From positions 1,027 to 65,026 of the IMG/VR virus record IMGVR_UViG_3300045821_000013: 64,000 nt of DNA. One strand, written 5' to 3'. Below, piece after piece: positions 23,171-63,233 of the stretch. Each line of letters opens with the position of its first letter. The stretch's first letter is position 1. Origin of the DNA: a virus. Its lineage: Duplodnaviria > Caudoviricetes. Position numbers and translations under genes: made by a program. The notes under the pieces are model-generated. The model was not told the origin of the DNA. It saw only the letters and a program-made list of their open reading frames with translations, and searched no databases.

Positions 23171-23187
23171 TCACCTTTCAGAGATTT

Positions 23188-23221
23188 GAAAACGCCGGGC
23201 GTCGAGGCCCGGCGTTTTTCA
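23188..23221. terminator. Stem-loop/terminator within the lysis region
   Basis: aaaacgccggg/cccggcgtttt inverted repeat. Confidence 0.6.
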
Positions 23222-23951: not shown

Positions 23952-23952
23952 A

Positions 23953-24174: not shown

Positions 24175-24187
24175 GGCACGTCTCCAA

Positions 24188-46469: not shown

Positions 46470-47329
46470 GCAAAATTACCATCGAACGGCATCGTGAAAT
46501 ATCCATCGAAGTCCACCCATCCGCCCCGCCCATAGGCTCCGCGCATCCCTCCAGACATGCGTTCGCGCATCCAGTCGACCGGAATATCGTTCGACATGGG
46601 TTGCTCGTTTCCATCCGCGATGCGCGCCTGCATGATCGCCTCCTTGGCAATTATCATCTGCTCACGGCGCAAAGCCATTCCGGCGCGCTTGTCCTTGGTC
46701 AAAGGCAAGGCCACTTTTGCGGCGAGGATGGCGACAATCGCCTCGCGGAACAACGAATCCCACATGGACGGATAGGGGTTGAACATCGTGTAGATCATTT
46801 GCGCATTGGGCGCATTGGTCAGCACGACAAGGCGGCCGGTTGGACTGAGGCCGGGAACGTCCCACCATTGCTGCCCTGGCGCGACCGGGTAATTTGGATC
46901 GTTGATGAGGCAAAATTTCGCGCGCCTCATTGGATTGCCATAGGACGTTGTAAGCTGCCCTGTCGTCAACGGAGCGCCAGACGTGCCAATGTTCCCGGCG
47001 GGCGTCCCCACGCCGCTGTAGCCCGGCTGATAGCGCACGGAGCGCGCCCGCAAGCAGTCGGTCGGATAGGAATATTCGTAAAGGGCGTTCATCGGCACGA
47101 TAGTTCCGACATTCGGCGTGGCGCCGCTGGCGTCGGCGAGCAAGGTCATTGCCTCAATCTTGGTGGCGAAATTCCAGTTTGCCGAGCGCAAAAGCTGGCG
47201 GATCGTCTCCCCATAAGCGCGCAACAGCACTTGCGCCTCGCGCGAACCGTCCTCGATATCGCCCAGGACGACTTCCGAACCGATGGCGTCGAGGGCTTGA
47301 TTGGCGATGTCTGCCGGAAGGCCGCTCAT
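46466..47329 (-). CDS. Tail tubular protein A / adaptor paralog 3
   Basis: DIANQALDAIG...WNFATK...YEYSYPTDC...DSLFREAIVAILA. Confidence 0.75.
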   Translation of the reverse strand: MSGLPADIANQALDAIGSEVVLGDIEDGSREAQVLLRAYGETIRQLLRSANWNFATKIEAMTLLADASGATPNVGTIVPMNALYEYSYPTDCLRARSVRYQPGYSGVGTPAGNIGTSGAPLTTGQLTTSYGNPMRRAKFCLINDPNYPVAPGQQWWDVPGLSPTGRLVVLTNAPNAQMIYTMFNPYPSMWDSLFREAIVAILAAKVALPLTKDKRAGMALRREQMIIAKEAIMQARIADGNEQPMSNDIPVDWMRERMSGGMRGAYGRGGWVDFDGYFTMPFDGNFA

Positions 47330-47333
47330 TCAT

Positions 47334-47948
47334 TCACCCTTGCGTGTTATCGGCGACGGTTTTTGCCGCCTGTTCGTCGCTCGCTTCCAGCTTGGCGGCA
47401 TCCAGTCCGACCAGATCGGGAGCCATTCGGCGCGCGAGAGCCGCAGCAAGCGCCTCGGTGAAATCGGCCTCCCAATCGACGGGGTTGGTCAGGCGTCCGG
47501 TGTAGGTCAGGATGGCGCTCGATACATTGCAAAGAATCACCTTGTCCGGATCTGCAAGCGAAGCGTCATTCTCGACGGAGAAAATGACAGGCTTCGGGTC
47601 CATGTTTGGAAGGATGAGGGGAACGCCGCGAATAGCTCGAACCTTGAGGCAATCGCTCGGATAGGAATATTCATAAAGCCATGGAATTGGAGGATAGGCG
47701 CTCGTCCACACGATGGGCGGAAAATATCCACCAACTGGCGCCTGTTTGAGCAAAACCAGCGAGACATTGCGCTCGGCAAAACCCCAATCATCGGCGCGCA
47801 AAACCTCATCGCGCGTCTGTCCATAGATCGTCAACGCGACGTTTGCCGCCTGCGATCCATCGAACAAGGAACCGATCTGCTTTTTGTAGCCAAGACGGCG
47901 AAGCGCCAGATTGACGACATCAGCCGGAGACTGAACTGAGGAAGTCAT
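47334..47948 (-). CDS. Tail tubular protein A / adaptor paralog 2
   Basis: DVVNLALRRLG...WGFAER...YEYSYPSDC...ADFTEALAAALA. Confidence 0.75.
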   Translation of the reverse strand: MTSSVQSPADVVNLALRRLGYKKQIGSLFDGSQAANVALTIYGQTRDEVLRADDWGFAERNVSLVLLKQAPVGGYFPPIVWTSAYPPIPWLYEYSYPSDCLKVRAIRGVPLILPNMDPKPVIFSVENDASLADPDKVILCNVSSAILTYTGRLTNPVDWEADFTEALAAALARRMAPDLVGLDAAKLEASDEQAAKTVADNTQG

Positions 47949-48514
47949 CCATCACGCCCTTCCGCGATTTGCGTGAAACCGCTACTGGATTCGAGAAGCG
48001 ATTGCGCGAGGTCTGGTTTTCCTGCCGTCGCCAGCGACAGCACACGCGCGAGCAGTTCAACCACGGCCTGGCGAAACAGGGCGTCCCATGTCGACTCTGC
48101 CGGATTGGCATTGAAGATGGCTTGCGCATTGGCCTGATTTGTCCAGATTACACGGCTTTGCGTCCCGCCTACGAGATTGCTTCCGTCAATCCAGTTGATT
48201 GGAAGCGGGTCATTCGGATCGGCGAGCGCCGCCGGCGCCAGTTGCCAAATCTGAACGCATTGCGCCGGGTAGGAATATTCATAAGCCCATGGAAATGGAG
48301 CCGCATTTCCGGTGACGACAAGCGCCTTGACCGTCCTGGCAAAGCCCCATTCGTATTGGCGGGCGACGGCGGCGACGGTCGGCGCATAAAGGTTCTGGAG
48401 CGCCTTTCCATTGGTCGATGAATCGAACGTCGGAGCCACGCCGGAAACCGCCGGCTGATTTCCGCCCATTAGTTGGACGGCTTGATTGGCTATGGTGTTC
48501 GATGTGACGGTCAT
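47945..48514 (-). CDS. Tail tubular protein A / adaptor paralog 1
   Basis: TIANQAVQLMG...WGFART...YEYSYPAQC...DALFRQAVVELLA. Confidence 0.75.
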   Translation of the reverse strand: MTVTSNTIANQAVQLMGGNQPAVSGVAPTFDSSTNGKALQNLYAPTVAAVARQYEWGFARTVKALVVTGNAAPFPWAYEYSYPAQCVQIWQLAPAALADPNDPLPINWIDGSNLVGGTQSRVIWTNQANAQAIFNANPAESTWDALFRQAVVELLARVLSLATAGKPDLAQSLLESSSGFTQIAEGRDG

Positions 48515-48630: not shown

Positions 48631-50118
48631 TCAATGAAAAACCCATTCAGACCCGTTGCATAGGGCAAGACCTACCGATGATCCTGTTCCAGTAATGGAA
48701 GCATTGAAAGTCGAAGTGTTTGAATTTGTGATGTAGTAGACCGTCCCTTGATTAGCTGACGTACAAGGATTGGCTACGAGTGTGGAGTAGGTATTCGCAG
48801 CTAAAGTAACTGACCCATCTTGGTTTATAGAAAATTCAACGCCGCCGCCACTGTTAAGCGTTTGTAGCATTGGACTATTTGGGGCAACAACGTTTTTCGT
48901 CTGCATGGTAATCGGCACGTGACCTGACGCACCAGTCGTATTTACGATTATCCCGGCTGGGCTGTCCTTTGTTGTTGTAGCATCAATAACAATGCCATAA
49001 GTAGAAATTCCAGCGCCAAGGTACTCAAAAACAACATATCCGTTATTCCCTGAAATATAAGGAGCTTCCGCGAATATAGCTGAATAACTTGGGTAACTTC
49101 CTAACGATCCAAATAGTAGCGTTATCGGAAGTATTTGAGGCGTACCAAATGATTCATTTGGAGGAAATGCATTATATGGAGCGCCAGCAAAATTAAACGT
49201 ATCTAGCTCATTCGTGCATATCCCTGTAGTATGCTGGTCGCACTGCCCAAACAAACCGAATGCGGTATTGCCGGCGCTGTTGAGATAGCCATATCCTGTA
49301 ACGCCTGTTGCAAATGAAAACCCGTTTGTCCCATCCTGCACAGCCGCGCCAACGATGGCGTTTTTATTCGGAGGAGTAGCAATTTGAATCTTTCCACCGA
49401 ACTGGTTTACGCCGGTTAATGCCGCTCCTGTAATTGTGGGGTCAACAAAAACCAAACCGCCCGAAGGCGTTTGCGTCGCACTCCATGTATTTGTGCCATT
49501 GAGCAGTGGGACCGTCGCTCCGCTTGTGCCAATGATTGAATACCCAAGTAGGCCGCCTGCATTATTCAATGGCTGTTGTAGCGCGTTAATGACATTCTGC
49601 GTTGACTGGACGACGGCTGGCGGCATAACGCTACCAGTTGGGTTGCCAGCTAGAGAATAAGCAGGCAATACAAGCGTGTTGACGCTGGCCGGGTAATAAG
49701 TGGCCCCGTTCAAATTGAACGTCAAAGTCCCAACTGCCGCGCCCCCGCCAGCGCCATAGGAGATAAGTCCGCCGCCGAGTGCGTTCGGATCAAAGCACAG
49801 ATAATGGAATCCGGTGGCGTTGGTGATCGGCGCGTCATACAAGCAACCATGCTCGCCATGCGGGCCATTGCCGGAATTCGCGCTCGGATAAGTGTTGGTC
49901 GGACTCCGCGACACGATGCCAAGTTCGGAAAGGTTCTGCCCGATCGCGCCGCCGCCCGAACCGCCGCCGTCGATAACGACAGGTTGCGAACCGTAAGTGG
50001 AATATTGCGGAACATGGCCTGGCGTCCATGCGCCGCCCTGCAAGACGGTCGATTGCGCCATGGCCGCAATGGGCGACAGCGCCAAAAGGAAGATCAATGC
50101 AGCGCGAAAAATTCTCAT
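48631..50118 (-). CDS. Fibre/adhesin-like protein with Sec signal peptide
   Basis: MRIFRAALIFLLALSPIAAMA/Q; G/T/S/N-rich; Cys pairs; C-terminal PCTSANQG...LCNGSEW; 3' two-thirds visibly lower in GC. Confidence 0.65.
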   Translation of the reverse strand: MRIFRAALIFLLALSPIAAMAQSTVLQGGAWTPGHVPQYSTYGSQPVVIDGGGSGGGAIGQNLSELGIVSRSPTNTYPSANSGNGPHGEHGCLYDAPITNATGFHYLCFDPNALGGGLISYGAGGGAAVGTLTFNLNGATYYPASVNTLVLPAYSLAGNPTGSVMPPAVVQSTQNVINALQQPLNNAGGLLGYSIIGTSGATVPLLNGTNTWSATQTPSGGLVFVDPTITGAALTGVNQFGGKIQIATPPNKNAIVGAAVQDGTNGFSFATGVTGYGYLNSAGNTAFGLFGQCDQHTTGICTNELDTFNFAGAPYNAFPPNESFGTPQILPITLLFGSLGSYPSYSAIFAEAPYISGNNGYVVFEYLGAGISTYGIVIDATTTKDSPAGIIVNTTGASGHVPITMQTKNVVAPNSPMLQTLNSGGGVEFSINQDGSVTLAANTYSTLVANPCTSANQGTVYYITNSNTSTFNASITGTGSSVGLALCNGSEWVFH

Positions 50119-50152
50119 GGCGGATTCCTTGATGTTCAGGGCAAGGCGAGGA

Positions 50153-50464
50153 TCAGTCTTTCTCGTCCTCGTCCATTTCGTTTTCGACGGCCATGCGCTG
50201 GATTTGAAGCTCCACGCGACATTCCGAGCCTTGCTCGCCGTCGTGCTTGCTGACGCTGGTGACGACGGCAAAGGCGCGCATGTCGATCAGATCGCCGATG
50301 TCCGGATTATCGCTCAAACCAAGTTTGTCGAGTTCCTTCTTGGTGAGCGAAATGCGCAAGCCCCAAGGATAATCGGGCTTGGTCGACCTTCCGGCGATTT
50401 CAATGCCGTTGTCGTGCTTGTCCTCGTCGTCATATTCGAGGGAAACGAGTTTCGACCAAGCCAT
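50153..50464 (-). CDS. Capsid staple-like protein
   Basis: PDYPWGLRISLTKKELDKLGL...VELQI. Confidence 0.6.
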   Translation of the reverse strand: MAWSKLVSLEYDDEDKHDNGIEIAGRSTKPDYPWGLRISLTKKELDKLGLSDNPDIGDLIDMRAFAVVTSVSKHDGEQGSECRVELQIQRMAVENEMDEDEKD

Positions 50465-50477
50465 GATAATCCCCTTA

Positions 50478-50915
50478 CTACGCGCCGCCGGGAGTGGTCG
50501 GAGCCATCGGCGGAGCTGCGGGCGCTTGTACGCCTTCACCAGCGCCAGGCTCGCCACCCTCGGCGCCGCCGGCCAATTCCTGCGTCTGCTGCGCGCCCAA
50601 TGCCTTGATGGCGTCCTCATGGCGCGAGTGCATTTTGCGGTGTTCCTCGCGGTGCGCGGCGTGAAGGTCGCGGCGCTCCGTCTCATGCGACTTGTGCAGA
50701 TCGCCGCGCGCCTTGGCGTGGCGCTCATGAACGGAGGGCGTCGTCTTGTCGCCTTCGCGCGATTCGGTGTCGTTGTGGGCATTGCCGGAGGATTTCATGC
50801 CCGCCGATTTCGGAAGGTCTTTGTGCGCCGCGCCGCGCGCCTTGGCGTGGTCGACTTCATCCTTGGGCTTGTGCGTCCCGGTCGGTCCCATCTTGTCATA
50901 GAGCTTGCTTGCCAT
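50478..50915 (-). CDS. His-rich charged hypothetical protein
   Basis: HERHAKARGDLHKSHETERRDLHAAHREEHRKMHSRHE. Confidence 0.6.
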   Translation of the reverse strand: MASKLYDKMGPTGTHKPKDEVDHAKARGAAHKDLPKSAGMKSSGNAHNDTESREGDKTTPSVHERHAKARGDLHKSHETERRDLHAAHREEHRKMHSRHEDAIKALGAQQTQELAGGAEGGEPGAGEGVQAPAAPPMAPTTPGGA

Positions 50916-50922
50916 GGCTGGA

Positions 50923-51222
50923 TCAGTCCTTTTTCGAGCGGTCGTACATGCGAGCGCGCTTTTCCTCGCGGCTCAACTTCTTCTTGTCCTTGTCGCCGCC
51001 GTCGCGCTTGGCGTCCGGTCCTTTTTCATCCTTGAAGGATTCGGGCTTTTTCCAGCCTTTTTTCTCGGCCATGGGTGATTTCTCCACTTTTTCGGGGAGT
51101 TTCCCCGGCTTGTCCGCGCTCACAAACTCTTTGGCGACAGATTGAGAGACGCCATCGGCGCCTCCCTTCTTCGAGGCGGCTGCATACATCAGCCGCCTCT
51201 GAGCTTGTGAGCGGAAGGGCAT
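50923..51222 (-). CDS. Conserved basic phage protein
   Basis: MPFRSQAQRRLMYAAA...VAKEFVSAD. Confidence 0.65.
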   Translation of the reverse strand: MPFRSQAQRRLMYAAASKKGGADGVSQSVAKEFVSADKPGKLPEKVEKSPMAEKKGWKKPESFKDEKGPDAKRDGGDKDKKKLSREEKRARMYDRSKKD

Positions 51223-51227
51223 GGCGA

Positions 51228-52562
51228 TCAGAGTTCCGCCGAGAACAACATCGAGCCAGATCCGCCGTTGCCCACCAGCGGCCCGCAAGCCGCGTTGGCG
51301 GTCTGCGAAGCCGCCGTGGTGAAGTTGAGGGAAGCGCCGATGGTCGTGTTCGCGGTTGCCGTGGCGGCAAACGGAGTCGCCAGGATGATCGGAGCCAAGC
51401 CCGTAGCGCCGATTTTGAAAGTCGAAGCCGTCAGCGCATTGGTAAAGGTCGGCGCCGCGCGCATCGGAACCGGGAAGGGGATGCTCAAAAGGCAAACCGT
51501 GGTGGAAGCCGATTGGCCGATTCCGGTGGGAACAATCACGCCAGCCGCCGGTTCGGACAGAACATAGGCATAACGCTGCTGGAGGAAGGTTTCGAACGAT
51601 TGCGGGCGGAACGCGAACGCCTTGGCGCGATTGTCGTTCGGGTTCAGGAACGTCGCCGCCGTGGCCGCAACCTTCGCCAGCGCGCTGTTCTTGGTTAACT
51701 GGATACCCGACAGCGCGAGATAATCGGACGTTCCAGCGGTGCCGGTCGGAGTCCAGCAAATCGCCACGCCGATTTCCGTCGCGGTGACGGGGATTGGCGC
51801 AGCGAAAGTCAGACGAACCGGGCCGGAGTTGGCCGCAAGCGCGTAGGTCGCGGACTGGTTAACCTGGCCGGTCCATCCGGAACCGCCGCCGCCGCCGGCA
51901 TTGATGCCATAGGCGAGCTTCGCCGTTCCTTCGTCGCCCGCCGCCAACGTGCCATAAGTGATATAGGCGGTGACGCCGGTTCCCGAAAAATTGGCGCCGG
52001 TGGCGACGTTGAAATCGAGTTCCGCGATCTGCCCTTGGAAAGCCAGGGAGTTCACGTTTTCGACTTCATGCGCCATGCAAGCCTGCACCACGCCGGTCTG
52101 CGCGGCGGTGCGCTGGAACAGGAAGTCCGCCTTGTAGCCGGTGGCGAGGTTCGCCGCCGTGGTGTCCTTGGACACAGTGACAGCGGTGGAAGCTCCGGAC
52201 CAATAGGCGAAGGAATTCGGCCCGCCATAGGTCAACGTGGTCGTAACCGATGCGCCGGTCGTGCCATGCGCCCAATTGTTCGTGGTCGCATCGCCGCCGG
52301 GGATGACGTTTTCCGGATTATTGCCGATCAACGTGGCGCCGAAGTTTCCGAGCATCAGGCTGGAAGCATAAGCCCCCAGCGCAGTCGGATATCCGGAGAC
52401 GACATCTTGAAACAAATCGGTCGGGCCAATGCTCTGCACCTGGGGGATGACAAAGTTCTGGCTGTTCGCCGTCGGGTTCGCGCCCTGCGCCCACGCGCCG
52501 TTGCAGGCAAGGGATGCAGTAGTCAACCCAATGAGAATCCTACGGAAAGGCTTCATGTTCAT
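51228..52562 (-). CDS. Fibre/carbohydrate-binding-like protein with Sec signal peptide
   Basis: MKPFRRILIGLTTASLACNGAWA/Q; NVIPGGD...W motif; C-terminal QRYAY...FPVPMRAAPTF tail-fibre-type motif. Confidence 0.65.
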   Translation of the reverse strand: MNMKPFRRILIGLTTASLACNGAWAQGANPTANSQNFVIPQVQSIGPTDLFQDVVSGYPTALGAYASSLMLGNFGATLIGNNPENVIPGGDATTNNWAHGTTGASVTTTLTYGGPNSFAYWSGASTAVTVSKDTTAANLATGYKADFLFQRTAAQTGVVQACMAHEVENVNSLAFQGQIAELDFNVATGANFSGTGVTAYITYGTLAAGDEGTAKLAYGINAGGGGGSGWTGQVNQSATYALAANSGPVRLTFAAPIPVTATEIGVAICWTPTGTAGTSDYLALSGIQLTKNSALAKVAATAATFLNPNDNRAKAFAFRPQSFETFLQQRYAYVLSEPAAGVIVPTGIGQSASTTVCLLSIPFPVPMRAAPTFTNALTASTFKIGATGLAPIILATPFAATATANTTIGASLNFTTAASQTANAACGPLVGNGGSGSMLFSAEL

Positions 52563-52581
52563 TTCTCCGATTGTCCGCCCA

Positions 52582-53004
52582 TTACTGGATGCGGTCCCAA
52601 GTGTTGTTCGAGAGTGACCAAAGCCATTCCACGCTCTGGTTTGCCGTCAGCGACGTGACGGGGTTGTTGAGTGTCGTTCCCGGCGCTTGCATCGTCAGCG
52701 CCGTGATGGCCTGCGACGTGAAGATCAAAGCGCGCTGGCCGTCGACGGGAGCCGCCGGCAAGATTATGGTGAGCGCCGCAAGCCCGCCGGCGGGATTGAC
52801 CGCCAAAACCGACTGATTGACGGTGGACGAACCAATCGTCAAGGTCGCGCCGGTCAGCGGCACAGCCTTCTGATAGCCCGACGCATCGCGCATCGAGCCA
52901 ATGGAAACCTCCGCCAGCATGGCGCCGCCACTGTCCGCTTCGACACGTTCGTTTCCGGTCGGCGATACAATGAGAACCGATCCTGGCTGATAAACGAGAG
53001 GCAT
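52582..53004 (-). CDS. Virion structural protein (beta-rich)
   Basis: NPAGGLAALTIILPAAPVDGQ motif; located in the head-decoration cluster. Confidence 0.55.
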   Translation of the reverse strand: MPLVYQPGSVLIVSPTGNERVEADSGGAMLAEVSIGSMRDASGYQKAVPLTGATLTIGSSTVNQSVLAVNPAGGLAALTIILPAAPVDGQRALIFTSQAITALTMQAPGTTLNNPVTSLTANQSVEWLWSLSNNTWDRIQ

Positions 53005-53017
53005 CTTCGTTTCCTTT

Positions 53018-53887
53018 TTAAATTGGCGTTCCGAGTGACATGGACATCGCCGCCGCGCCACTGGCCGACATGCGATAGTTGATGGTTCCGGACGCATAGG
53101 CCGAGCAATTGAAACGATAGAGCGTTCCGCGCTCCGGTTCGCCGAAGGTCAAGGAAACAGGCGTTCCCGCGCTGTATTGCGCCAGCACTCCCGTTCCGCC
53201 GACATTGGTGATGATCCACGTCAAGCCGCCGTCAAAGGAACGCTCGATCTGAACCGTTCCGGAAAAGACGATCGAGGCCCCGGTGAACACCACGTTGGCG
53301 TCAGATCCAGTCGTGACGCTTTGGTTGGTGAGTTTGAAGGAAAACGGAAAATTCTGGTTCTGTGGCGAAATGCTGTAGCCGGTCGGAACGCCCGAAAGCT
53401 GCACAATGCCAGGTTGCGCCAGCGCATTGGAATTGCTCGACGCGGGAATCGCCGCCTGCATGATCGCCGTGACCGTCTGCCCGCCGATGGATGCGCCGAG
53501 CAAGCCCGCCGTCGAAGGCAGATTGATGATCTGGTTTTGTGCCGTCAACTGGCCGTAGAGCGTGATCGTTGGAAAAGCCAGGGTGATATTCGTCCCGGCA
53601 ATCGAACCGATGGTGGTTCCTGCCGGAAGATTGGCTGAATTGATCGAATTTCCGGCGGCGAGGGTGCTGGCGGTCGTAATCGTGGCGATGCTGGAACCGT
53701 TGGTCGTGACAAGGTTTCCCGTCACAGCCGCCGACAGCGATGCGTACAGCAAGGCATTGCATTGCCCGAAGGCGGAGAACGGCTTGCCGGTTCCGACCGC
53801 CGTAAACGTGCCTATGACAACTCCGGAGGCGATATCGCCCGCCGGAGGCGTTCCATCGACAATGCCAAGTCCCGCCAGTATCGACAT
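53018..53887 (-). CDS. Virion structural protein (Gly/Thr-rich)
   Basis: 289 aa, beta-rich; GTVQIERSFDGG motif. Confidence 0.55.
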   Translation of the reverse strand: MSILAGLGIVDGTPPAGDIASGVVIGTFTAVGTGKPFSAFGQCNALLYASLSAAVTGNLVTTNGSSIATITTASTLAAGNSINSANLPAGTTIGSIAGTNITLAFPTITLYGQLTAQNQIINLPSTAGLLGASIGGQTVTAIMQAAIPASSNSNALAQPGIVQLSGVPTGYSISPQNQNFPFSFKLTNQSVTTGSDANVVFTGASIVFSGTVQIERSFDGGLTWIITNVGGTGVLAQYSAGTPVSLTFGEPERGTLYRFNCSAYASGTINYRMSASGAAAMSMSLGTPI

Positions 53888-54699
53888 CAGATCGCCTTTC
53901 GAGCGTCTTGGTTGTTGCGCCTGGCCGGAGCCTGAATCGTGCCAAGAACATTGACGAATTCATTGCCGGGATTGTCGTTGTCGGTCAGGTCCAGATCGTC
54001 ATCGAAATCGGCGACGGAGGCAATCTGGCGCCGCTGCGGCCCTTCGCCGACGATGGACAATCCGCCCGCCGTCACCCAAATCGGCGTCTGAGCCTTTTCC
54101 TTGACGACGGAACCGATGGAGTCGAGGAAATGCTGGAAGATTTCCTTGGCCGCTTCATTCTCCGGCCTCATGCCTTCGCTCGGCACTCCCGACCAGCGGA
54201 ATTTGACCGGCTCCGGCTTCCCATTGACCATTTTGTAGGGGTCGATGAGCCGCTCGTTCAGGCACAGCTTGGTGATGGCGCGATAGAACGGGCGAGCCTT
54301 GTTGGCTTCCTCGCGGTCGCGCTCGGTGTGCGCGGACGACATGGCCTCGTCATAGGTGCGCTTATGATGAAGGATGGCCTCCACCATGCGGCTATGCGCC
54401 TCCTGCCGGGAAGCGAGAATTTCCGGAGCCACGCGCTTGCGGCTGGTTCCTTGGTCGGAAATCTCGGCGATGGCGAGAGCGAGGCCGCGAAACATCTGCT
54501 GCGCCGCGTCTCCCTCGATCGCCGCGCCGATCTGCGGCGAATTGCCTCCAGCCAGGGACTTGAGGATTGACGGGAGCGCCTTGTCGAGCGCGGCTTTCGT
54601 GGCCGCTTCGACAGCGGCCTGAAATTCATGCGATGACGTGTCGACAGCGGGCGGCGCAGGCTGTTCATGCACAGAAAAATCTTTGGCGTTCTCGCTCAT
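53887..54699 (-). CDS. Hypothetical protein
   Basis: 270-aa ORF between the cement and structural genes. Confidence 0.55.
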   Translation of the reverse strand: MSENAKDFSVHEQPAPPAVDTSSHEFQAAVEAATKAALDKALPSILKSLAGGNSPQIGAAIEGDAAQQMFRGLALAIAEISDQGTSRKRVAPEILASRQEAHSRMVEAILHHKRTYDEAMSSAHTERDREEANKARPFYRAITKLCLNERLIDPYKMVNGKPEPVKFRWSGVPSEGMRPENEAAKEIFQHFLDSIGSVVKEKAQTPIWVTAGGLSIVGEGPQRRQIASVADFDDDLDLTDNDNPGNEFVNVLGTIQAPARRNNQDARKAI

Positions 54700-54787
54700 G
54701 ATATTGATCCTCGGTCGGCGTCCACGCGGCGACATGGCTTAAATCCCGGCTGGAGGCGCGGCGGACTATTCCGCCGCGCCGATGGCG

Positions 54788-55339
54788 TCAGGCAACGGAG
54801 AAATTCTTCGTTGCGAACTTGTTGGCCTGATCGTCACGCACCATGGTCACGATCGCCGACGAAACCGTACCGGCGGAGAAACTGGTTCCGGCGGCGGTCT
54901 GAAACAGGAGGCGGTAATAGCGCGGGTTCAGGTTAGCCGGAAAAGCCGGCGGGAACTGGAAGCGCGCCAAAATCTGGCCCGCCGTCAACCTGCCGACTGC
55001 GACGGGTCCGGTTTCTTCCAGCGTCGTCCATGCGCCCGGCAGATAGTTGCCAGGGGCGCCGGTGTCCGGAGCCGCCTGCAAGGCGACATTGAGCGTGGCT
55101 CCATTGGCGGTGGCGCAGGCCACGCCGATAATCGCCTCGATCTGCGGCGTGATGCCGCCGACGCCGACATCGGAACCGAAATTGGTGACGTTGCCGATGA
55201 TATTTCCCGGCGCGGTTCCGACTCCCTGCCCAAGAACGTCGAGGACAATCGGGGAGGGAATGGCGACGCCAGCGCCCGCGACCAGCGACAAATTGCCGTT
55301 GATCGGAACGAAAGCAAGTTGTGAGTCCGTGATGCTCAT
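54788..55339 (-). CDS. Capsid cement protein (Bbp16-like)
   Basis: Directly downstream of the MCP; LNVALQAAPD...RYYRLLF. Confidence 0.7.
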   Translation of the reverse strand: MSITDSQLAFVPINGNLSLVAGAGVAIPSPIVLDVLGQGVGTAPGNIIGNVTNFGSDVGVGGITPQIEAIIGVACATANGATLNVALQAAPDTGAPGNYLPGAWTTLEETGPVAVGRLTAGQILARFQFPPAFPANLNPRYYRLLFQTAAGTSFSAGTVSSAIVTMVRDDQANKFATKNFSVA

Positions 55340-55365
55340 TTGAAAGTTCTCGCTCTCAGCAAGAG

Positions 55366-55390
55366 AAATGAAAGCGGGCGCGATGCCCGC
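55366..55390 (-). terminator. Terminator after the major capsid gene
   Basis: GCGGGC-ATCGC-GCCCGC-TTTCATTT. Confidence 0.5.
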
Positions 55391-55396
55391 CCATGA

Positions 55397-56440
55397 TTAC
55401 GAAACGACGGATTCGGTGTTCAGGATCTGGTCGATGATCTTCCACGGAATCCCACGGAAGCTGTCGACCGGGCGGCCGGCGTAGTCGTCAATGCGCAGCA
55501 ACACGTTGCGGTCGCGCATCGCCTGCACGTCCGCCCAATGGCGCATCGTGCGATTGGTGTAGATGACCGTGCGGACGGAAGGTTCGTCGCGCGGCGCATC
55601 GGACTTGACGACGCCGGAAGTCGACTTGGACAGCTTCGGAAACAGCAAAAGCTGCTGCGCGATCAGCGCGAAGATATCGGGCGCGTTGGGACCTGCCAGG
55701 CCCGCCGTCGTCACGTCGATGTTCGCAATGCGCGAACCGTAACGCCAGTCCTTCGGGCAAAGCCCGGCCTGCTGACGGAACCAGCTCGTATAAGCCTCGA
55801 ACCGATTGCCGAGCGCGTCGAAAGCCGGGGTCGTATCGCCCTTGTCCTCCATGTCGAGGCCCGCCTTGGAGCCGCGCGGATAAAGGCCAAAGATGGTTTC
55901 CGGCGACCAGCCGATAAGCCAGAGCGACGTGTTGGACGATCCGGTGCCGCCGGCATTGATGACGTTGGCCGCGTTCTGCGCGTTGTTGAGATTGACGGTG
56001 TTGTAGAAGGGCGTCAGGCCCATGAACGCCGCCGGATTGGTGACGGTGTTGCCGTAAAGGAAGGTTTCGGCAATGGTCTGCGACATGCCTTCGAGAAAGG
56101 CCACGTCCTCGGACTCGCGGAACTTTTCCTTGTCGCCGGAATGTTCGGCGAGAGCGCGGTCGACCTGGCTGTAATCTTCCAGCATCCCAAGGCCGACGCG
56201 CGCCTTGGCGGTGGTCGACTTGCTGTAGGGGACACCCTGATTATAGCCGCGCCACGAACCGGCGGGGATCGAGGTGCGAAACACGAATTCATGGCCCGTC
56301 GCTTCATTCGCTTCAACCCACGGAACATCGTCCGTGTAGTCATTCGACTGCGAGAGCATTTCCGCGATGACCGGAATCTTGCCTTCCGGATCGAGGCGGG
56401 TCGAAAGATCGAGGAGTGACGGCCATTGCCCTGTTGCCAA
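55397..56440 (-). CDS. Major capsid protein (TTG start)
   Basis: RBS taggagg; IAEMLSQSNDYTDDVPWVEAN...RTSIPAGSWRGYNQGV...SEDVAFLEGMSQ...FRGIP; BPP-1-like. Confidence 0.88.
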   Translation of the reverse strand: MATGQWPSLLDLSTRLDPEGKIPVIAEMLSQSNDYTDDVPWVEANEATGHEFVFRTSIPAGSWRGYNQGVPYSKSTTAKARVGLGMLEDYSQVDRALAEHSGDKEKFRESEDVAFLEGMSQTIAETFLYGNTVTNPAAFMGLTPFYNTVNLNNAQNAANVINAGGTGSSNTSLWLIGWSPETIFGLYPRGSKAGLDMEDKGDTTPAFDALGNRFEAYTSWFRQQAGLCPKDWRYGSRIANIDVTTAGLAGPNAPDIFALIAQQLLLFPKLSKSTSGVVKSDAPRDEPSVRTVIYTNRTMRHWADVQAMRDRNVLLRIDDYAGRPVDSFRGIPWKIIDQILNTESVVS

Positions 56441-56519
56441 TTTAGCCTCCTAATACATAGTGTTGATGGATCGTGGCAACCATGCTAGGCTGACCATCGA
56501 GTGAGCGGAGATGCCCTAG

Positions 56520-57089
56520 ATGCCGAAAGCACCCAAGCCTGCCCTGACTGCGGAATTTGTCCGATCCATCCTTGACTATGATCCGAACACCGGCGTGTTC
56601 CGTTGGCGGGTTCGCGCAGATCGCGCGAAAAACTGGAATACCCGTAACGCGGGGAAAGTCGCTGGAACGACGCACCCTGATGGGTACATCCTCATCCAGA
56701 TTGAAAAAGGCGCGCACTACGGAGCGCATGTTCTGGCGTGGCTTTACATGATGGGCGAGTGGAGGCCTGGCGGCGTTGACCATCTCCATGGTCTTCGTGG
56801 CGACAACAGGTTCTCCGAACTGCGTGCGGCGACATCCGTTGATAATGGGTGCAATAAGACGATGCAGAAGAACAACCGCACTGGCATCATTGGCGTTTGG
56901 TTCAATATGCAGCGCGGTAAATGGGAGGCGAGTATTTCCAGGGATGGTCGCCGCGTCTGGCGTAAGTTTTTTCCAACCCTTGAAGATGCCGCAAGCGCGC
57001 GTCACAGCGCCCTTGCAGAAATCCATGGCGAATTCGCCGTTTCCGACCACTTGACCCGGCCGCTCTATCACCATCGCCGCGATCATTGA
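56520..57089 (+). mobile_element. Free-standing HNH homing endonuclease with AP2 domain, antisense between scaffold and MCP
   Basis: LDYDPNTGVFRW...AHVLAWLYM...VDHLHGLRGDNRFSELR; AP2 GIIGVWF...KWEASI...FPTLEDAASAR. Confidence 0.88.
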
Positions 57090-57922
57090 CCGCTCCGATT
57101 GTACGTGTCTCGAAGTGTCCGCTTTGGCTGCGAACCGTTGCTTGGCGTCGGTTTTGGGTTGGGCGGCGGAAGCGAAGGCTCATCGAACGCTTTGCCGACA
57201 TTGACCATAAGGCGCAGGAAGGCCGGGTGATTTCCGGCGCCGGTGACAGCAAGGAATTGTTCGAACGCCGGTTTCATGGTTTCGGGAACAAACTTGTCGC
57301 GCATACGCGCCACCACGCCCATGGCCGTCCTGAAACCGGAGCCGCCCAATTCAGGATCGCCCATGACCTCTTTCACCCACGCTTCGTTGGTGGCATGAAA
57401 TTGGCGGAATTGTTCTTTCACCATGGCCTGGCTGGCGTCCGCCATGGCTTTGGCATGAAGATCGAGCAAAGGCTGAAATCCCTTTGCCGGATCGGCCCGA
57501 AATCCATCCAGAGCGGTGTGAAGCTCGCCCTTCAAGGCATCGTCAATCTTGATGGTTTCCGGAACCGCATATTCATATGCGACCGGAGGCAAGGCGGCGG
57601 GCGCGGCGGCTTCTGTCGGCGCAGCCTCGCCCTCGGCCTTCTTTTCTTCCGGCTTGGCTTCGACGGGCTTTGCAGTTTCGCCCGCCGGAGGCGTCACGCC
57701 GTCCAGATTTTTCGCTTCGGCTTCTTCGCGCTCGAACTTCTGGAGCAGCGTTTCGCCATGCTCCAAAGCGCCCTCAGTCGCAGGCGCGGCGGGAGCAGCG
57801 GGAGTTTCGAGGGCAGGAACCGCAGCGACGACGACGCCGGACGACGGCGCGGGTTCCTGCCCTCCCGTAACCGGGGGAATGGTCACGGATTCGGAAATTT
57901 CTTGTGGATTGATGTCAGCCAT
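57083..57922 (-). CDS. Capsid scaffolding protein
   Basis: Acidic Ala/Pro-rich N-terminus; GAGNHPAFLRLMVNVGKAFDE; upstream of the MCP. Confidence 0.7.
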   Translation of the reverse strand: MADINPQEISESVTIPPVTGGQEPAPSSGVVVAAVPALETPAAPAAPATEGALEHGETLLQKFEREEAEAKNLDGVTPPAGETAKPVEAKPEEKKAEGEAAPTEAAAPAALPPVAYEYAVPETIKIDDALKGELHTALDGFRADPAKGFQPLLDLHAKAMADASQAMVKEQFRQFHATNEAWVKEVMGDPELGGSGFRTAMGVVARMRDKFVPETMKPAFEQFLAVTGAGNHPAFLRLMVNVGKAFDEPSLPPPNPKPTPSNGSQPKRTLRDTYNRSGQ

Positions 57923-58307
57923 TATTCGCCCCTTTTGCGTTTTGCAGGGGCTTTGGGCTTGGCAAATCGCGGGTCATGCTCGTCCAGCATGGCAAACATG
58001 CCCGCGCGATCGAGCAGCGCCCACGACTGGTATAGGCGTTGACCAACAGCCTGTTCCCCGGCGTGGAACCAAGTTGCTTCTGGTTGCGGAAAGCCGGTCG
58101 GCCCGCAGGCGAAAACCGGCGAAAAGGTATGGCAGGCTTCAAGGACGCGCCACATTTCGCGGCGGCCGACTTCGGAAGCGAAAACAGCTTTCCAGAATTG
58201 CTGCGCGTCATGGCGGTCGCGCTCGCGCGCATTGAGCTTCTTGACCTGTTCGACCTCATCGGGCGTCTGGCCTTCATCGTTCTGTTCGACTTCAAGCTCG
58301 TATTCAT
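57915..58307 (-). CDS. Bbp19-like protein
   Basis: FWKAVFASEVGRREMWRVLEAC...FHAGEQAVG. Confidence 0.7.
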   Translation of the reverse strand: MNTSLKSNRTMKARRPMRSNRSRSSMRASATAMTRSNSGKLFSLPKSAAAKCGASLKPAIPFRRFSPAGRPAFRNQKQLGSTPGNRLLVNAYTSRGRCSIARACLPCWTSMTRDLPSPKPLQNAKGANNG

Positions 58308-58310
58308 CGG

Positions 58311-58820
58311 TCATTGCATCCCCGGCACGATGAGGCCGGAAGGCCGTTGCGTCATGCCCGGCGGCAGGGCGGCGACTCGATGCTGGCGCGTATCGCGGAA
58401 CGGCGCCGGAGCTGTAACGGGCAGGATCATGCCCATTTTGCCGGTCGCGCCTGTGCGTAGCTTTTCGACCTGAACAAGCAAGGCGCGAAGGTTCTCGGCG
58501 AGCTTGACGAAAAGGGGATGCTTCTGGCCTTCGGGAATCGGTGTCCGCCTTTTCGTGACCGGATCTTGAACGCCGCGCAGCCATTCTCCAGCCATGTTAT
58601 GGCATTTCGACATCATCAGGCCGATGGGAAGCCAGCGCGTGTCCTCGCGCCACGCCGAAGCCTGGCGGCAGCATCCTTCGACCAGTTTCAACTCGGTGCG
58701 GTACTGGTGATAGATCGGCCCTTTGAGCGGATGAACGGCCAAATCCTCGCAATGGTGAATCGCTTTTCCAAGCGAGTCGGCCATGCAATCGAAGATTTCC
58801 TGTTCGGTAAGTGCGCCCAT
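58311..58820 (-). CDS. Hypothetical protein
   Basis: About 170-aa ORF ending SGLIVP. Confidence 0.6.
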   Translation of the reverse strand: MGALTEQEIFDCMADSLGKAIHHCEDLAVHPLKGPIYHQYRTELKLVEGCCRQASAWREDTRWLPIGLMMSKCHNMAGEWLRGVQDPVTKRRTPIPEGQKHPLFVKLAENLRALLVQVEKLRTGATGKMGMILPVTAPAPFRDTRQHRVAALPPGMTQRPSGLIVPGMQ

Positions 58821-58933
58821 GCACAAGCCTTGCGTGACATGGGAAAAAAGGGCAACGCCCGTTGCGATTAGCCGATAATCATGGATATTATAAACTACAA
58901 GAAAGCATCATATTCGATTGGCGGTATAAGATA

Positions 58934-59176
58934 ATGACCGATGCGCCTCTCCAAACTGCTTTGAAACGCGACTACGATCATTTGACGCGCAAAGAGGCGG
59001 CTCACTACCTGACGACAAGAGGATGCCCGATATCGGCGGCGACACTCGCGGGCATGGCATCGAACGACAATGCCGGGAAGGGTCCGCCGTTCACTCGGTT
59101 CCGCTGGAAGCGCGTCATTTATCTGCGCAAGGACTTGGACGAGTGGATGGCGAAACAAACGACGAGGGTGGAATGA
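58934..59176 (+). CDS. Excisionase/AlpA-like HTH protein
   Basis: LTRKEAAHYL...ISAATLAGMA...GKGPPF...VIYLRKDLDEW. Confidence 0.75.
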   Translation: MTDAPLQTALKRDYDHLTRKEAAHYLTTRGCPISAATLAGMASNDNAGKGPPFTRFRWKRVIYLRKDLDEWMAKQTTRVE

Positions 59177-59352
59177 CCGAACTGACCAAACGCAACGGCG
59201 TCACCATCCGCCACCGCGAACGCCTACCGAGCAAGCGCAAGGTCAAGAAGATCATCCGCGATGTCTCCGCCGCTCTCGCCGCGCTCGGCGTCCATTGCGC
59301 GCGCGTGGCCGCCGCGAACGAATATCCGAAATTTGGCTGCAAGAGGAAATGA
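59173..59352 (+). CDS. Small basic hypothetical protein
   Basis: ATGA-coupled to the HTH gene. Confidence 0.45.
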   Translation: MTELTKRNGVTIRHRERLPSKRKVKKIIRDVSAALAALGVHCARVAAANEYPKFGCKRK

Positions 59353-59477
59353 CCATGCGCGCGAGCAACAAGGAAATCCTGTTTTTCTTCTGTGTCGGCA
59401 TAGCTTCGCCGTTCATCCTCCTGATTGGCATCATCTGGATTATTTGGGCGGCGCTCAAGGCGCTTGTTGGAAGATGA
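59349..59477 (+). CDS. Small membrane peptide
   Basis: ILFFFCVGIASPFILLIGIIWIIWAALKALV. Confidence 0.45.
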   Translation: MTMRASNKEILFFFCVGIASPFILLIGIIWIIWAALKALVGR

Positions 59478-59499
59478 TGGAGCGGGCGGATTGCAAGAA

Positions 59500-61326
59500 C
59501 TATTGCGCGCCGCCGCCAATTCCCATGAGAGCGCCAAGCCCATTGTTCCCGCCGGGAAGCTGCGTCTCCGATAAGGTCTTTGCCGCTTGAACGCCTGCCA
59601 TCGCCTGTTGCGGAGCTTGTGCTTTCGCCATTTCCTGTTCACGGATCTTGTCGTGCTGTTTCACTTCGTCCTCGGTGAACATGCAATCGGACGGGAAGTT
59701 GTTCAGATCGCCATATTTGCGCGCGGCCTTGTCGAGATTGATGACGCGGATCGGGTCAGGGACGCCAGCCGCCTTGGCGGCGCTGGATAGTTCTCCCAAG
59801 GTCTGGAATACGTCTTTCATGGCGACGGAACCGGCGCTGCGCATGGCCTGCCGCATCAAGCCCTCGAACGTCAGTTTGAGCGGAACGCCATGCAGGCTTT
59901 TCGGCATGGGTGCGAGTAGCCGCCGGCGCTGCGCTATGTCCATCACGCGATGGATGCAGATTGCAAGCTCGTTCTCTATCAGTTCAATGACCGGCCCAAG
60001 TTTCTGGAGGCGCTCCAGATCGCGCTTGGTCAATTCCAGTTCGTTGCGAGGCTGAACGCCTTGCATCTGTGTGATCGCCATGAACACGTCGACATAGAGG
60101 GCTTTTTCGATGCGGGCGTTCACCTTGTCGATATCGGCGATGATCGCGTTCAATCCAACAGGATTCGGTTCGAACAGGGGGAAATAGCCCTTCTTGCCGC
60201 CCGACGTGTCCACATAGGTCGTCTGGCCCGGCAGGATGCTCGAAGGCTCATTCTTCATGGAAGGATCGGCGCCCATGGGCGGCCGCACAAACTTTTCGAT
60301 AAGCTCGGCCTTGCGCAGCGTTTCCTTCTGCACTTGCTTGTTGTCTCCAAGCGCGTCCATGCAAGGCGAGCGGCCATAGGAATCGTTCGAGACACGCGAC
60401 CAGATAAATGTGAAAAATGGACGTGAGTTGAATCCCCGGCGCGAAAGCGGCTCATCGCATTTCATGCCCTTGAGCCAATAAATTTCCCGATAGACGAAAG
60501 AGCCTGGCAGGACTTTGACGGTCTTTCGGCCATCAGATCCGGACAGTTCAAAATTTGGCTCGATCATATGGCCGACGACAAATTCTTGATCGTGTGAGCC
60601 GGCTCCAGCCGCCCACAGCGATTTCACGTCCTGCGGGCATTTCTCAAGCCCGAACATTTCCACGATCTGCTGAACCGTCAGCGTGAATTCACGGATATGC
60701 GTGTCCGTCGACATGCGCGCGCCGACCTTGAGATAATATTCCCCGGCGCAGGGCAGATAGAACCGCACAATTTCGTCATAGTCCTCGTAGCAGATGACTG
60801 GCGCCGTCCCGAAAACCGTCACGTCCTCGAACGCCTGCGCCATGATCGTGTAGAAATTCGATTTCGACAGGATCGTGAACACATCGGACGCGATGCCGTC
60901 GACCCAAATCTTGCCGTCCGGTTCAAGTTGAAAATTCTCGTCCTGCGGTTCGACCTTGAACCATTGGCGCGTTGGGTTCGTCAAACCGGCCCACATGCCG
61001 CTGGAGCATGTGTTGACAGCGAGCGCGCCGGTCGCGTCGATGATGTTGTCATTGATCGCGGAGCCGCGATTCATGCGGTTCGCGGTGACAAGCCAGTGAT
61101 ATCGCCTCGGTTTGAAAAACTCGGCCAGGCGCGCCCAATGCGCCCACCATGAATAGCGCCACGATCGAGCGGACGCCAAAGATCCTTCCAGATGGGTGTA
61201 AATCACGTCCCATCCGTCGCTGTCCTTCGGCGTTTTGTCTTTCGGCGTTACGGGCTGCTGCGCGAGCAAACTCGGCCCCATTTGCTCATAGGTCGCAAAG
61301 CTGTTTGAGGCCATGTCATTCATCAA
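59500..61326 (-). CDS. Portal (head-tail connector) protein, T7/Bbp21 family
   Basis: IIDATGALAVNTCSSGMWAGLTNPTRQWF, FGTAPV, YGRSPCMDALGD, ELTKRDLERLQKLGPVIE. Confidence 0.9.
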   Translation of the reverse strand: MMNDMASNSFATYEQMGPSLLAQQPVTPKDKTPKDSDGWDVIYTHLEGSLASARSWRYSWWAHWARLAEFFKPRRYHWLVTANRMNRGSAINDNIIDATGALAVNTCSSGMWAGLTNPTRQWFKVEPQDENFQLEPDGKIWVDGIASDVFTILSKSNFYTIMAQAFEDVTVFGTAPVICYEDYDEIVRFYLPCAGEYYLKVGARMSTDTHIREFTLTVQQIVEMFGLEKCPQDVKSLWAAGAGSHDQEFVVGHMIEPNFELSGSDGRKTVKVLPGSFVYREIYWLKGMKCDEPLSRRGFNSRPFFTFIWSRVSNDSYGRSPCMDALGDNKQVQKETLRKAELIEKFVRPPMGADPSMKNEPSSILPGQTTYVDTSGGKKGYFPLFEPNPVGLNAIIADIDKVNARIEKALYVDVFMAITQMQGVQPRNELELTKRDLERLQKLGPVIELIENELAICIHRVMDIAQRRRLLAPMPKSLHGVPLKLTFEGLMRQAMRSAGSVAMKDVFQTLGELSSAAKAAGVPDPIRVINLDKAARKYGDLNNFPSDCMFTEDEVKQHDKIREQEMAKAQAPQQAMAGVQAAKTLSETQLPGGNNGLGALMGIGGGAQ

Positions 61327-61381
61327 CTACCCCTGCGCCGCAGCATTGAAATAGCGATAAAGAAGAGTCGTTTCAGCATCT

Positions 61382-62746
61382 TCAAAGCCCCGAACAAGAC
61401 ATTTCGATTACGTCGCCAGTCGTCCACGTCACAGCCGCTCCCGTTGTCCTCGAAAACGCTGTGAATGTTGCGGTATTAGTCGCCCACCCTGTCTGTGCAA
61501 CAACTACAGTTGTCGCGTTGGTCTTATCGTTGGCGTAACAATTCCATTCCGTAGTTGCTGACGGAAGATTGACCGTTCCCGTACTGCCGGACGGGCTTGC
61601 TGGGATGGTGACTTGAAAAGCCGTCGTACCATTCTGCGTTCCAACAGTTGTTGTATTGCCAAAACCAGCGTTCCATGTTGGAGCAGTAGCGCTATAAAAT
61701 ATACGGTTTGTAAGAAGGTTACCAAAAGCTCTGGCTTGGAATTGCCCGCCAACTTGGCTAGCCTGCTGTGTGCCGTTGGCTGAGTAAAATGTAACGTATG
61801 GGTTACCTTGCAGGTTCAATCCGCCTGCGGTAGTGACGCTTATTAAAGCCTGCCCGGCAGTTGATAAGCTCGGAGGAGCATAATTGCCGCCGATCCAAAG
61901 CGTTCCCGCATTGGTGCCAGTTGTCGGGGCGGTTGTCCCGCCCATGAGGGATGTCGTATTAATCGCGGGAGAGGCAACGCCAGCGCCAGAAAACTGCGTA
62001 GTACCGCTATACGTCACCGCGCCGGAAAAGGTCTGCGTCGCCGCAAGGAGAGCCAGCGTATCCGAGACGTTTCCGGTATTGGGAAACGTAATCGTGCGGG
62101 CTTGGGCGGAGGAATTGCCGGAGTTGATCGTGTCAATGACGGTCGTGCCATTGATAAGCAGCCCCGTTGTAGTGCGAATGCTCCCGGTTACGTCGAGAGT
62201 ATAGTTACCGGTTGTCGCTCCAATCGCTAGGAAGCTGCCGTTGTTTATGTAGCTAAAGCCAGACGCTCTTAACGAAACCCCGGTTACACCCGCATTATTC
62301 AACGCAAGCGTACCATTATCATTTGTGGCGGAAGTTCCCTGTAGAGAAAATGTTCCGTTGGTTCCATTATTTCCGGTAAAACCCGAAAACTGCGTTGAAG
62401 TCGTAACATATTGCCTTTGATTAAAAATATTTGCTGCCGTGGTCAGGGCCACGTTTGAGTAAAGGATACCGCTGTCAGCAACCGCCGCGCCGGAGGTTGA
62501 ATTCCATGTGACAAGATTGCCAACGACTGTCGTGCCCGGGCCTGTAATGCCACCAGAGCCGGACTGACAACCAAGAACGCCGGAGTTGTTATAGAGGAAC
62601 TGGCCCGGCGAGCAGCCTGAAATGGGAGAGACGCCAGAGGTGAGCGATCCGCCACCGCCGCCGCCACCAGGACCGGATATCTGCGCAAATGCCGACGACA
62701 TCGACAGGATCGAAATGAATAGAAAGGCAAGATACCGTTTCATCAT
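61382..62746 (-). CDS. Fibre-like protein with Sec signal peptide
   Basis: MKRYLAFLFISILSMSSAFA/Q; T/G/N-rich; Cys pairs GC...GC and WNCYA...MSC; lower GC. Confidence 0.65.
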   Translation of the reverse strand: MMKRYLAFLFISILSMSSAFAQISGPGGGGGGGSLTSGVSPISGCSPGQFLYNNSGVLGCQSGSGGITGPGTTVVGNLVTWNSTSGAAVADSGILYSNVALTTAANIFNQRQYVTTSTQFSGFTGNNGTNGTFSLQGTSATNDNGTLALNNAGVTGVSLRASGFSYINNGSFLAIGATTGNYTLDVTGSIRTTTGLLINGTTVIDTINSGNSSAQARTITFPNTGNVSDTLALLAATQTFSGAVTYSGTTQFSGAGVASPAINTTSLMGGTTAPTTGTNAGTLWIGGNYAPPSLSTAGQALISVTTAGGLNLQGNPYVTFYSANGTQQASQVGGQFQARAFGNLLTNRIFYSATAPTWNAGFGNTTTVGTQNGTTAFQVTIPASPSGSTGTVNLPSATTEWNCYANDKTNATTVVVAQTGWATNTATFTAFSRTTGAAVTWTTGDVIEMSCSGL

Positions 62747-62961: not shown

Positions 62962-62971
62962 GGTGGGTTCC

Positions 62972-63229: not shown

Positions 63230-63233
63230 ATCC

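Follow-up and report, generated by a model that had tools for sequence, protein, structure and literature searches.

Three fibre-like proteins, here termed A, B and C, are encoded in the virion module of a short-tailed (podovirus-type), lytic-type soil phage of ~65 kb, and all three carry predicted Sec signal peptides. The window analysed is a 64-kb stretch of a single-contig virus record of 65,026 bp (IMG/VR, IMGVR_UViG_3300045821_000013). An earlier note, made from the letters of the window alone, had proposed that the three products are exported, oxidatively folded and attached to the particle at or after lysis or, as its alternative, shown on the infected cell so that receptors are blocked. 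Judged from sequence, it is highly probable that each protein combines a functional export signal with disulfide-type cysteines, and folding of A, B and C very probably takes place in the periplasm, whereas tailed-phage particles are assembled in the cytoplasm. Hundreds of uncultured relatives likewise have leaders and paired cysteines on proteins of this type. The best explanation as a whole, which we favour tentatively, is that these Sec-exported late fibre-type proteins are the phage's own host-recognition appendages, joined to the particle late. The features of the three proteins (lengths in amino acids, aa; a slash marks the predicted cut) are as follows.

48631..50118, minus strand: protein A, 495 aa; signal peptide, conserved N-domain of ~130 aa and variable fibre-like C-terminal part with two Cys pairs
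50056..50118, minus strand: signal peptide of A, aa 1-21, predicted cut AMA/Q
49669..50055, minus strand: conserved N-domain of A, aa 22 to ~150, LQGGxWTPGH...C...C; profile matches in 1031 clusters
51228..52562, minus strand: protein B, 444 aa; signal peptide, conserved mature N-segment, jelly roll of carbohydrate-binding module (CBM) type and C-terminal QRY...PMR domain; core gene
52488..52562, minus strand: signal peptide of B, aa 1-25, predicted cut AWA/Q
51678..52340, minus strand: CBM-like beta sandwich of B, aa ~75-295, containing the invariant Cys162 and Cys269
51231..51605, minus strand: C-terminal domain of B, aa ~320-444, QRYAY...FPVPMRAAPT...SAEL and the covarying Cys357-Cys426
61382..62746, minus strand: protein C, 454 aa; signal peptide and T/G/S/N-rich fibre-like body with two Cys pairs; accessory gene
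62684..62746, minus strand: signal peptide of C, aa 1-21, predicted cut AFA/Q

The three open reading frames (ORFs) were found at the positions and in the frames given by the earlier note, and the basic N-region, hydrophobic core, A-x-A site and +1 Gln that it had described are present in A (MRIFRAALIFLLALSPIAAMA/QSTV), B (MNMKPFRRILIGLTTASLACNGAWA/QGAN) and C (MMKRYLAFLFISILSMSSAFA/QISG). Its description of the mature parts as rich in G/T/S/N also holds for all three, with Ala as a further abundant residue. The leaders fit a signal peptidase I (SPase I) signal, with a positive n-region, an uncharged h-region of ~7-15 residues and small residues at -3 and -1, and the SPase II lipobox [LVI][ASTVI][GAS]C was absent from the end of the h-region in A, B and C. 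The leader scores of the three proteins (5.0, 4.61 and 4.62) were the highest among all greedy ORFs of the window, the scorer being a crude von Heijne-type heuristic made for this analysis and not a trained predictor. A Shine-Dalgarno sequence (AAGGA, GGAGA or GGGAG) lies 5-11 nt before the ATG of each gene; no other high scorer has one at its first start, the remainder being internal starts or shadow frames. Mis-called starts of the three genes were ruled out by these Shine-Dalgarno sequences together with an identical start pattern in homologues.

The leaders are best supported by comparison among homologues. Homologue searches over 5.8 billion proteins returned >330 homologues of B, 51 of A and 10 of C. 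Of those compared, 119/120 for B, 51/51 for A and 9/10 for C have the same kind of leader, which exceeds what chance would give. Ala stands at -3 in 96/119, 43/51 and 8/9 and at -1 in 110/119, 47/51 and 9/9, respectively; the +1 residue was Gln in 77/119 B and 33/51 A homologues, and Gln or Glu in 9/9 of C. The leader sequences themselves drift freely, keeping charge, a hydrophobic run of ~10-14 residues and the A-x-A site, and the residues directly past the cut are conserved (VPQVQSIGPxDLFQD in B, xxLLQGGPWTPGH in A). For A, a profile of the first 170 residues of 15 sequences was searched against 1.84 billion representatives and matched 1031 representative clusters, 531 of them at E <=1e-30, and in ~139 of 141 further representatives a leader stood directly before the N-domain. 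Genomic neighbourhoods were compared in 41 related loci from IMG/VR and from metagenome-assembled genomes (MAGs) labelled Bradyrhizobium, Hyphomicrobiales and Salinisphaerales, all of them stand-alone contigs of ~60-68 kb (individual loci carry L numbers below). In these relatives, neighbouring genes bear the same kind of leader, up to six consecutively.

The conservation pattern bears on the reading that A, B and C are ordinary cytoplasmic fibres whose hydrophobic N-termini stay uncleaved and serve as assembly helices or as membrane tethers facing the cytoplasm. AlphaFold does give the leader of A as a confident helix, and false signal-peptide calls have been made on capsid proteins of some phages (PMC10367356). 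For assembly helices, conservation of sequence would be expected, yet only the charge, run length and A-x-A are kept, and the hydrophobic run is too short for a stable anchor. A twin-arginine (Tat)-type leader in a neighbouring gene of one relative also speaks against it, as does the cysteine parity given below, which contrasts sharply with that of leaderless neighbours. We consider this reading very improbable.

In relatives, leader-bearing genes follow one another, three to six at a time, in the interval from the head genes to B (L019:3222-9639, L003:6849-10701, L013:6104-9519 and L033:5808-9462). Cys counts in the L019 run are 4, 4, 8, 16, 4 and 4, and counts are mostly even across such runs; the equivalent in the window is the leaderless pair p289 and p140. 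The Tat-type leader (RRRFLKG; MKNRLNRRRFLKG...ARA/D) belongs to a 548-aa gene (L008:934-2580) that lies upstream of a B homologue and adjoins a leader-bearing gene of 1812 aa, so these cassettes contain signals of both Tat and Sec type.

Cysteine content was consistent with an extracytoplasmic destination. Mature A has six cysteines (92/108, 293/301 and 452/487), mature B four (162, 269, 357 and 426, plus one Cys within the leader) and mature C four (45/60 and 403/451), with short-range pairs in A and C. Paired cysteines had been noted previously in two of the proteins; all three, not two, have even mature counts. Even counts were found in 119/120 B, 173/192 A-type and 9/9 C sequences and in 28/35 other leader-bearing neighbours, the parity count of B being inflated by relatedness and that of the A-type proteins much less, since their C-termini differ. 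Leaderless neighbours of >=140 aa, by contrast, comprised 73 with even counts, 94 with odd counts and 60 without Cys. In the B alignment, C162 and C269 are invariant and C357 and C426 co-occur in 40/40 sequences, the remaining sequences holding an alternative covarying set of four Cys; the C92/C108 pair is invariant in the A family. These patterns support the conclusion that the cysteines of the leader-bearing proteins behave as disulfide pairs, as in extracytoplasmic proteins. Together with the conservation of the leaders as Sec/SPase I signals, they give good support, at the level of homologue comparison, to the export and oxidative folding that had been suggested.

Two pools of each protein, arising by partial export or from a second start, would allow a cytoplasmic fraction to be built into particles and an exported fraction to serve an accessory role in the envelope. 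The p140 family provides some precedent, as leader-bearing and leaderless forms stand side by side in L027, and residue 20 of A, immediately ahead of the predicted cut, is a Met. The A family does not conserve this Met, however, no internal start lies near the cut in B or C, and an oxidised functional form is favoured by the even Cys counts and the covarying pairs. The two-pool arrangement is accordingly improbable.

For B, fold and homology both point to a tail fibre. The QRY...FPVPMRAAPT motif that the earlier note had assigned to one of the three proteins sits in B and aligns with CQRYAY...FPVTMRSIP of an annotated cyanophage tail fibre. A model made from a 112-sequence alignment (predicted local distance difference test, pLDDT, 86; predicted template modelling score, pTM, 0.82) contains a jelly roll that VIA-align matched to CBM4, CBM16 and CBM22 at Z 12-13.7; over the CBM domain only, matches were also found to CBA120 TSP4, Klebsiella phage Kp7 gp52 and a Pseudomonas phage Pa193 tail fibre (Z 11.7-13.4). 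The best BFVD matches to the whole model were phage 'tail fiber proteins', with E 1e-24 to 1e-13 and a TM-score of 0.55-0.67. Pfam and PHROGs gave no family for A, B or C, a Protein Data Bank (PDB) sequence search with the B profile gave no match, and when 50,697 phage records were searched by tblastn with A, B and C, nothing matched at 1e-3. At E 10, tblastn returned only three weak cyanophage matches (B reaching no better than E 0.5), which prompted a profile comparison by hhalign. The B profile aligned with the leaderless Synechococcus phage S-N03 gp193 ('tail fiber protein') at a probability of 96.3% and E 1.9e-9 over 299 columns, from residue 73 to the C-terminus, including CQRYAY, FPVTMR and the terminal AEL. 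Sequence comparison and model thus show that B is of fibre type, with two domains and predicted sugar binding, and that its homology is to the distal part of tail fibres without leaders. Leader-bearing B-like proteins were also found in another phage type, beside terminase and portal (L006).

A short motif, x-[LI]-x-G-x-[DE]-x-[IVF]-[PQ], is shared by the mature N-termini of B subfamilies (window 52400-52490) and of p140 (52940-53004); examples, including the L006, L019 and L034 homologues, are SIGPTDLFQD, PLTGNETIPAD, NLAGTEQIPL and SPTGNERVEA. It may represent a common docking strand.

The architecture of A is that of a tailspike or fibre. In the best 150 profile matches the N-domain always occupies residues ~1-170 of proteins that are 168-1599 aa long. 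The C-termini behind it are unrelated among relatives, and some have Beta_helix, pectate-lyase-like, NosD or Peptidase_S74 domains. The region of A has the lowest GC content of the window (52.4%), as expected of a swapped module. AlphaFold modelled the N-domain as beta-rich (pLDDT 79-92), well modelled only over residues ~70-150, and the full-length model was poor outside it (pLDDT 51); a PDB sequence search with the A profile gave no match. By sequence architecture A is shown to be of tailspike/fibre type, with a conserved docking-type N-domain and swappable, presumptive receptor-binding C-termini. In the ESM Atlas both A and C lie near clusters of phage trimeric fibres (PTL_trimer, Mtd_N, HylP and S74), matches to be read as leads only, and the possible fibre-type assignment of C is such a lead. 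The fibre-like nature proposed earlier for all three proteins is supported for B, by homology and fold, and for A, by architecture; for C, an accessory gene, language-model and structure leads point in that direction.

The virion module, of podovirus type, occupies the right third of the window on the minus strand. Its gene order is terminase, portal, scaffold/protease-like gene, major capsid protein (MCP), p183, p282, p289, p140, B, three small ORFs, A, three adaptors and nozzle, with internal virion proteins (phrog_308 and phrog_418), a 989-aa protein and a 4548-aa protein 3' of the nozzle. C stands apart from A and B, between terminase and portal. Apart from A, B and C, the features of the module that matter here are the following.

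59500-61326, minus strand: portal, virion module
57083-57922, minus strand: scaffold/protease-like gene, virion module
55397..56440, minus strand: MCP, leaderless, ~43% identical to those of Pseudomonas podophages YA3 and Ab31; defines the virion module
53018..53887, minus strand: p289, conserved, leaderless; slot occupied by leader-bearing genes in some relatives
52582..53004, minus strand: p140, small, leaderless, directly upstream of B; homologues both with and without signal peptide
46466..48514, minus strand: three tandem adaptor-type tail genes (phrog_394), leaderless, directly downstream of A
42456..46469, minus strand: nozzle-type tail protein, 1337 aa, leaderless; phrog_376 plus ~600 extra residues

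In the related loci, with MCP identity from 72% down to ~50%, the order portal-scaffold-MCP-p183-p282-p289-(p140)-B-small ORFs-A-adaptors-nozzle is kept, with one or two copies of A and three to five adaptors. Almost every relative in which the region is covered has A and B in synteny, with none of the sporadic presence of a moron; C alone shows such presence, being absent from 40/41 loci (L012 has a C-like gene next to the portal). In relatives, each large variable gene of the tail module bears a leader. Among the leaderless proteins of the window none had a recognisable fibre domain, in agreement with the remark in the earlier note that no signal-less tail fibre could be recognised, and a paralogue of A, B or C, leaderless or otherwise, was not found in the genome. 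The gaps to the upstream genes are 34, 19 and -4 nt for A, B and C, the start of C overlapping the upstream ORF by 4 nt. A scan for promoter and terminator consensus sequences, which does not extend to the promoter types of the host, gave chance-level results with nothing flanking A, B or C. The short gaps and this result indicate that A, B and C belong to the late operon. Two small putative ORFs lie upstream of C (62743-63289): one of 72 aa, Pro/Ala/Gly-rich, the 3' end of which overlaps the start of C, and one of 105 aa with hydrophobic segments that overlaps the end of the terminase gene. One related contig belongs to a MAG labelled Bradyrhizobium; in 301 genomes sampled from the family of that MAG, the A domain did not turn up. 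On this result, and because the relatives in MAGs are whole contigs of ~62-68 kb, an origin as prophage or bacterial surface genes was rejected.

Based on these observations, a route for the three proteins can be proposed. A, B and C would be made from the late operon as Sec precursors and carried across the inner membrane by the leader; signal peptidase I would cut after A-x-A, mostly exposing Gln, and folding would follow in the periplasm with disulfides made by Dsb. Head, adaptor rings and nozzle, all leaderless, would give fibre-less particles in the cytoplasm. Once the holin opened the inner membrane, with the outer membrane still confining the contents, the two pools would mix and the fibres dock. 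The textbook view of tailed-phage assembly is of a wholly cytoplasmic process. That the exported proteins join particles at lysis is possible, and both the time and the place of joining are stated with reserve. The complete scheme, in which a host-recognition apparatus is made separately by Sec export and oxidative folding and docks on fibre-less particles after holin opening, so that assembly spans two compartments and needs Sec and Dsb, is doubtful as it stands. One gene bears on the lysis step.

24188..24643, minus strand: endolysin (PF18013), no signal or signal-arrest-release (SAR) segment

With an endolysin that has neither leader nor SAR segment, a hole-forming holin is to be expected. 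The probable lysis region (22805-24643) comprises this endolysin, an Ala-rich hydrophobic ORF of 150 aa (23499-23951) and a spanin-like pair in reversed order, namely a 41-aa lipoprotein with lipobox LLAGC (23219-23344) and a protein with a transmembrane segment plus coiled coil (22805-23170).

The same export and disulfide evidence applies if A, B and C are exported but never become virion parts. As late envelope effectors they could, while in the periplasm, bind or cleave nascent surface polysaccharide, or cover cell debris once lysis has occurred; receptors would be masked or destroyed, progeny would not be lost on dead cells, superinfection would be blocked, and recognition would fall to the nozzle or p289-like proteins. 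The CBM-type sugar-binding fold of B and the depolymerase-type beta-helix domains in relatives of A would suit such a task, lipobox-like variants exist, and the nozzle with its ~600 extra residues and the conserved, leaderless p282 and p289 remain for recognition. Exported phage proteins of this kind also have precedents: lambda lom is an exported non-virion protein among tail genes (PMC12309495), and in Porphyromonas phages, unknown genes with signal peptides were interpreted as host-surface modifiers by Matrishin et al. 2023 (PMC10367356). Against this stand the position of A and B as syntenic core genes of a structural operon with no sign of a promoter of their own, and the conserved N-domain with swapped C-termini of A, which is the signature of docking to a conserved partner. 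Masking would further need a particle-borne partner of matching specificity, and there is neither a leaderless paralogue nor another large variable tail gene; receptors on the outer surface would moreover be out of reach of periplasmic proteins before lysis. A role purely as envelope effectors is a possibility to be taken seriously, and action on the infected cell is, overall, about as likely as a virion role.

Several observations weigh against late-joined host-recognition appendages. The late mixing step has to be assumed, as the docking partners are cytoplasmic, and we know of no tailed phage that assembles by such late joining. When 48,161 chains were compared with the A model by VIA-align, the highest Z was 3.0, at noise level, and no match to a known particle-binding domain was detected. 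B roughly equals the capsid protein in conservation, an unusual trait in a receptor binder. The leaderless p289, p140, p282 and ~600 extra nozzle residues could themselves be appendages or receptor binders; a PDB sequence search with p289 gave no match. Members of the p140 family (C-terminal LPxAPxDGQ...TWxR) are leaderless in the window (52582-53004) and in L032, leader-bearing in L003:1935-2432 and L024:4822-5514, and present in both forms in L027:8709-9915, so not every member of the cassette has to be exported. In a small number of A-type relatives a Cys lies within a lipobox-like sequence (LAAC/LIAGC), and lipidation, if real, would better fit a membrane-bound than a virion role. These leaders can also be read as SPase I signals ending APA/Q, and the variants were therefore dropped as proof of membrane anchoring. 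On the other side, late joining of A, B and C gains credibility from leader-bearing structural proteins of phage phi18:3 and from Sec-exported MAT fibres of Bdellovibrio, both described below.

If a large group of soil phages does route its receptor-binding parts through Sec and Dsb, infectivity would depend on the export and disulfide machinery of the host, the timing of lysis would double as the last assembly step, and modifications confined to the periplasm would be possible on fibres. Engineering or heterologous production of such fibres would then need periplasmic expression. If A, B and C are instead non-virion effectors, they would form a large and conserved class of late phage proteins, so far unstudied, that act by remodelling or masking the cell surface. 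Under both readings, the families (A N-domain, >=1031 clusters; B, >330 proteins) are clear targets for simple tests.

Other features of the window were noted in passing. A plus-strand ORF (56520-57089), by eye a candidate homing endonuclease of HNH/AP2 type, is set into the minus-strand operon, with the scaffold gene on one side and the capsid gene on the other. A strong terminator-like hairpin of 8 pairs, 6 of them G-C (55372-55392, minus strand), lies directly 3' of the capsid gene and is the sole convincing terminator in the module. The stretch 8960-11034 encodes a primase (Toprim plus zinc ribbon) and then a protein with a PAPS-reductase domain, possibly a DNA-modification enzyme.

A literature search found no description of Sec leaders or export signals on tailed-phage fibres. 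The claim that the system is undescribed stands as far as the literature searched is concerned, and is qualified by the GenBank record of a cultured podophage, Cellulophaga phage phi18:3, which already marks three leader-bearing proteins (gp085-087) as structural by tandem mass spectrometry. Their N-termini begin MK..., with a hydrophobic run and S/A-x-Q. The likeness lies in large consecutive proteins with classical signal-type N-termini in a tailed phage; phi18:3 differs in belonging to an unrelated phage family with a host of the phylum Bacteroidota, in the lack of sequence similarity and in the absence of Cys pairing (0, 1 and 3 Cys), and its record is silent on leader removal in virions. 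The MAT fibres of Bdellovibrio bacteriovorus show that phage-like trimeric fibres can be fitted with a signal peptide and exported (Caulton et al. 2024, PMC10769870). They resemble the A family at the level of architecture only, and are bacterial genes serving a predator cell, whereas A, B and C are phage genes.

Leaderless tail fibres with CBM and CQRY...PVxMR...AEL (S-N03 gp193 and, from BFVD, Xanthomonas FoX4 and OP1h and Burkholderia BcepNazgul and BcepSaruman) are homologous to the body of B from ~residue 73 and have the same fold. Where those fibres begin with a leaderless N-terminal segment, B has a cleavable-type signal peptide, a different conserved segment of 50 residues and paired Cys. 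A follows the same logic as podovirus tailspikes and fibres (P22 gp9, epsilon15 gp20, T7 gp17 and CBA120 TSPs), with an N-domain common to >=1031 clusters, C-termini that range from 0 to 1400 residues, with beta-helix, pectate-lyase and S74 chaperone modules among them, and a gene that adjoins the adaptors. Unlike in those tailspikes, the N-domain of A always stands behind a signal peptide, contains an invariant Cys pair and has no detectable similarity to solved particle-binding domains. Among exported phage proteins, pIII of filamentous phages is likewise a Sec-exported receptor-binding protein and requires periplasmic disulfide formation, but its phages assemble at the membrane. Lambda Lom and Bor are likewise signal-peptide products of phage structural regions, but are small, sporadic morons expressed in lysogens. 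Compared with Lom, Bor and pIII, the genes described here are core genes (A and B), fibre-like, and part of a lytic-type tailed phage.

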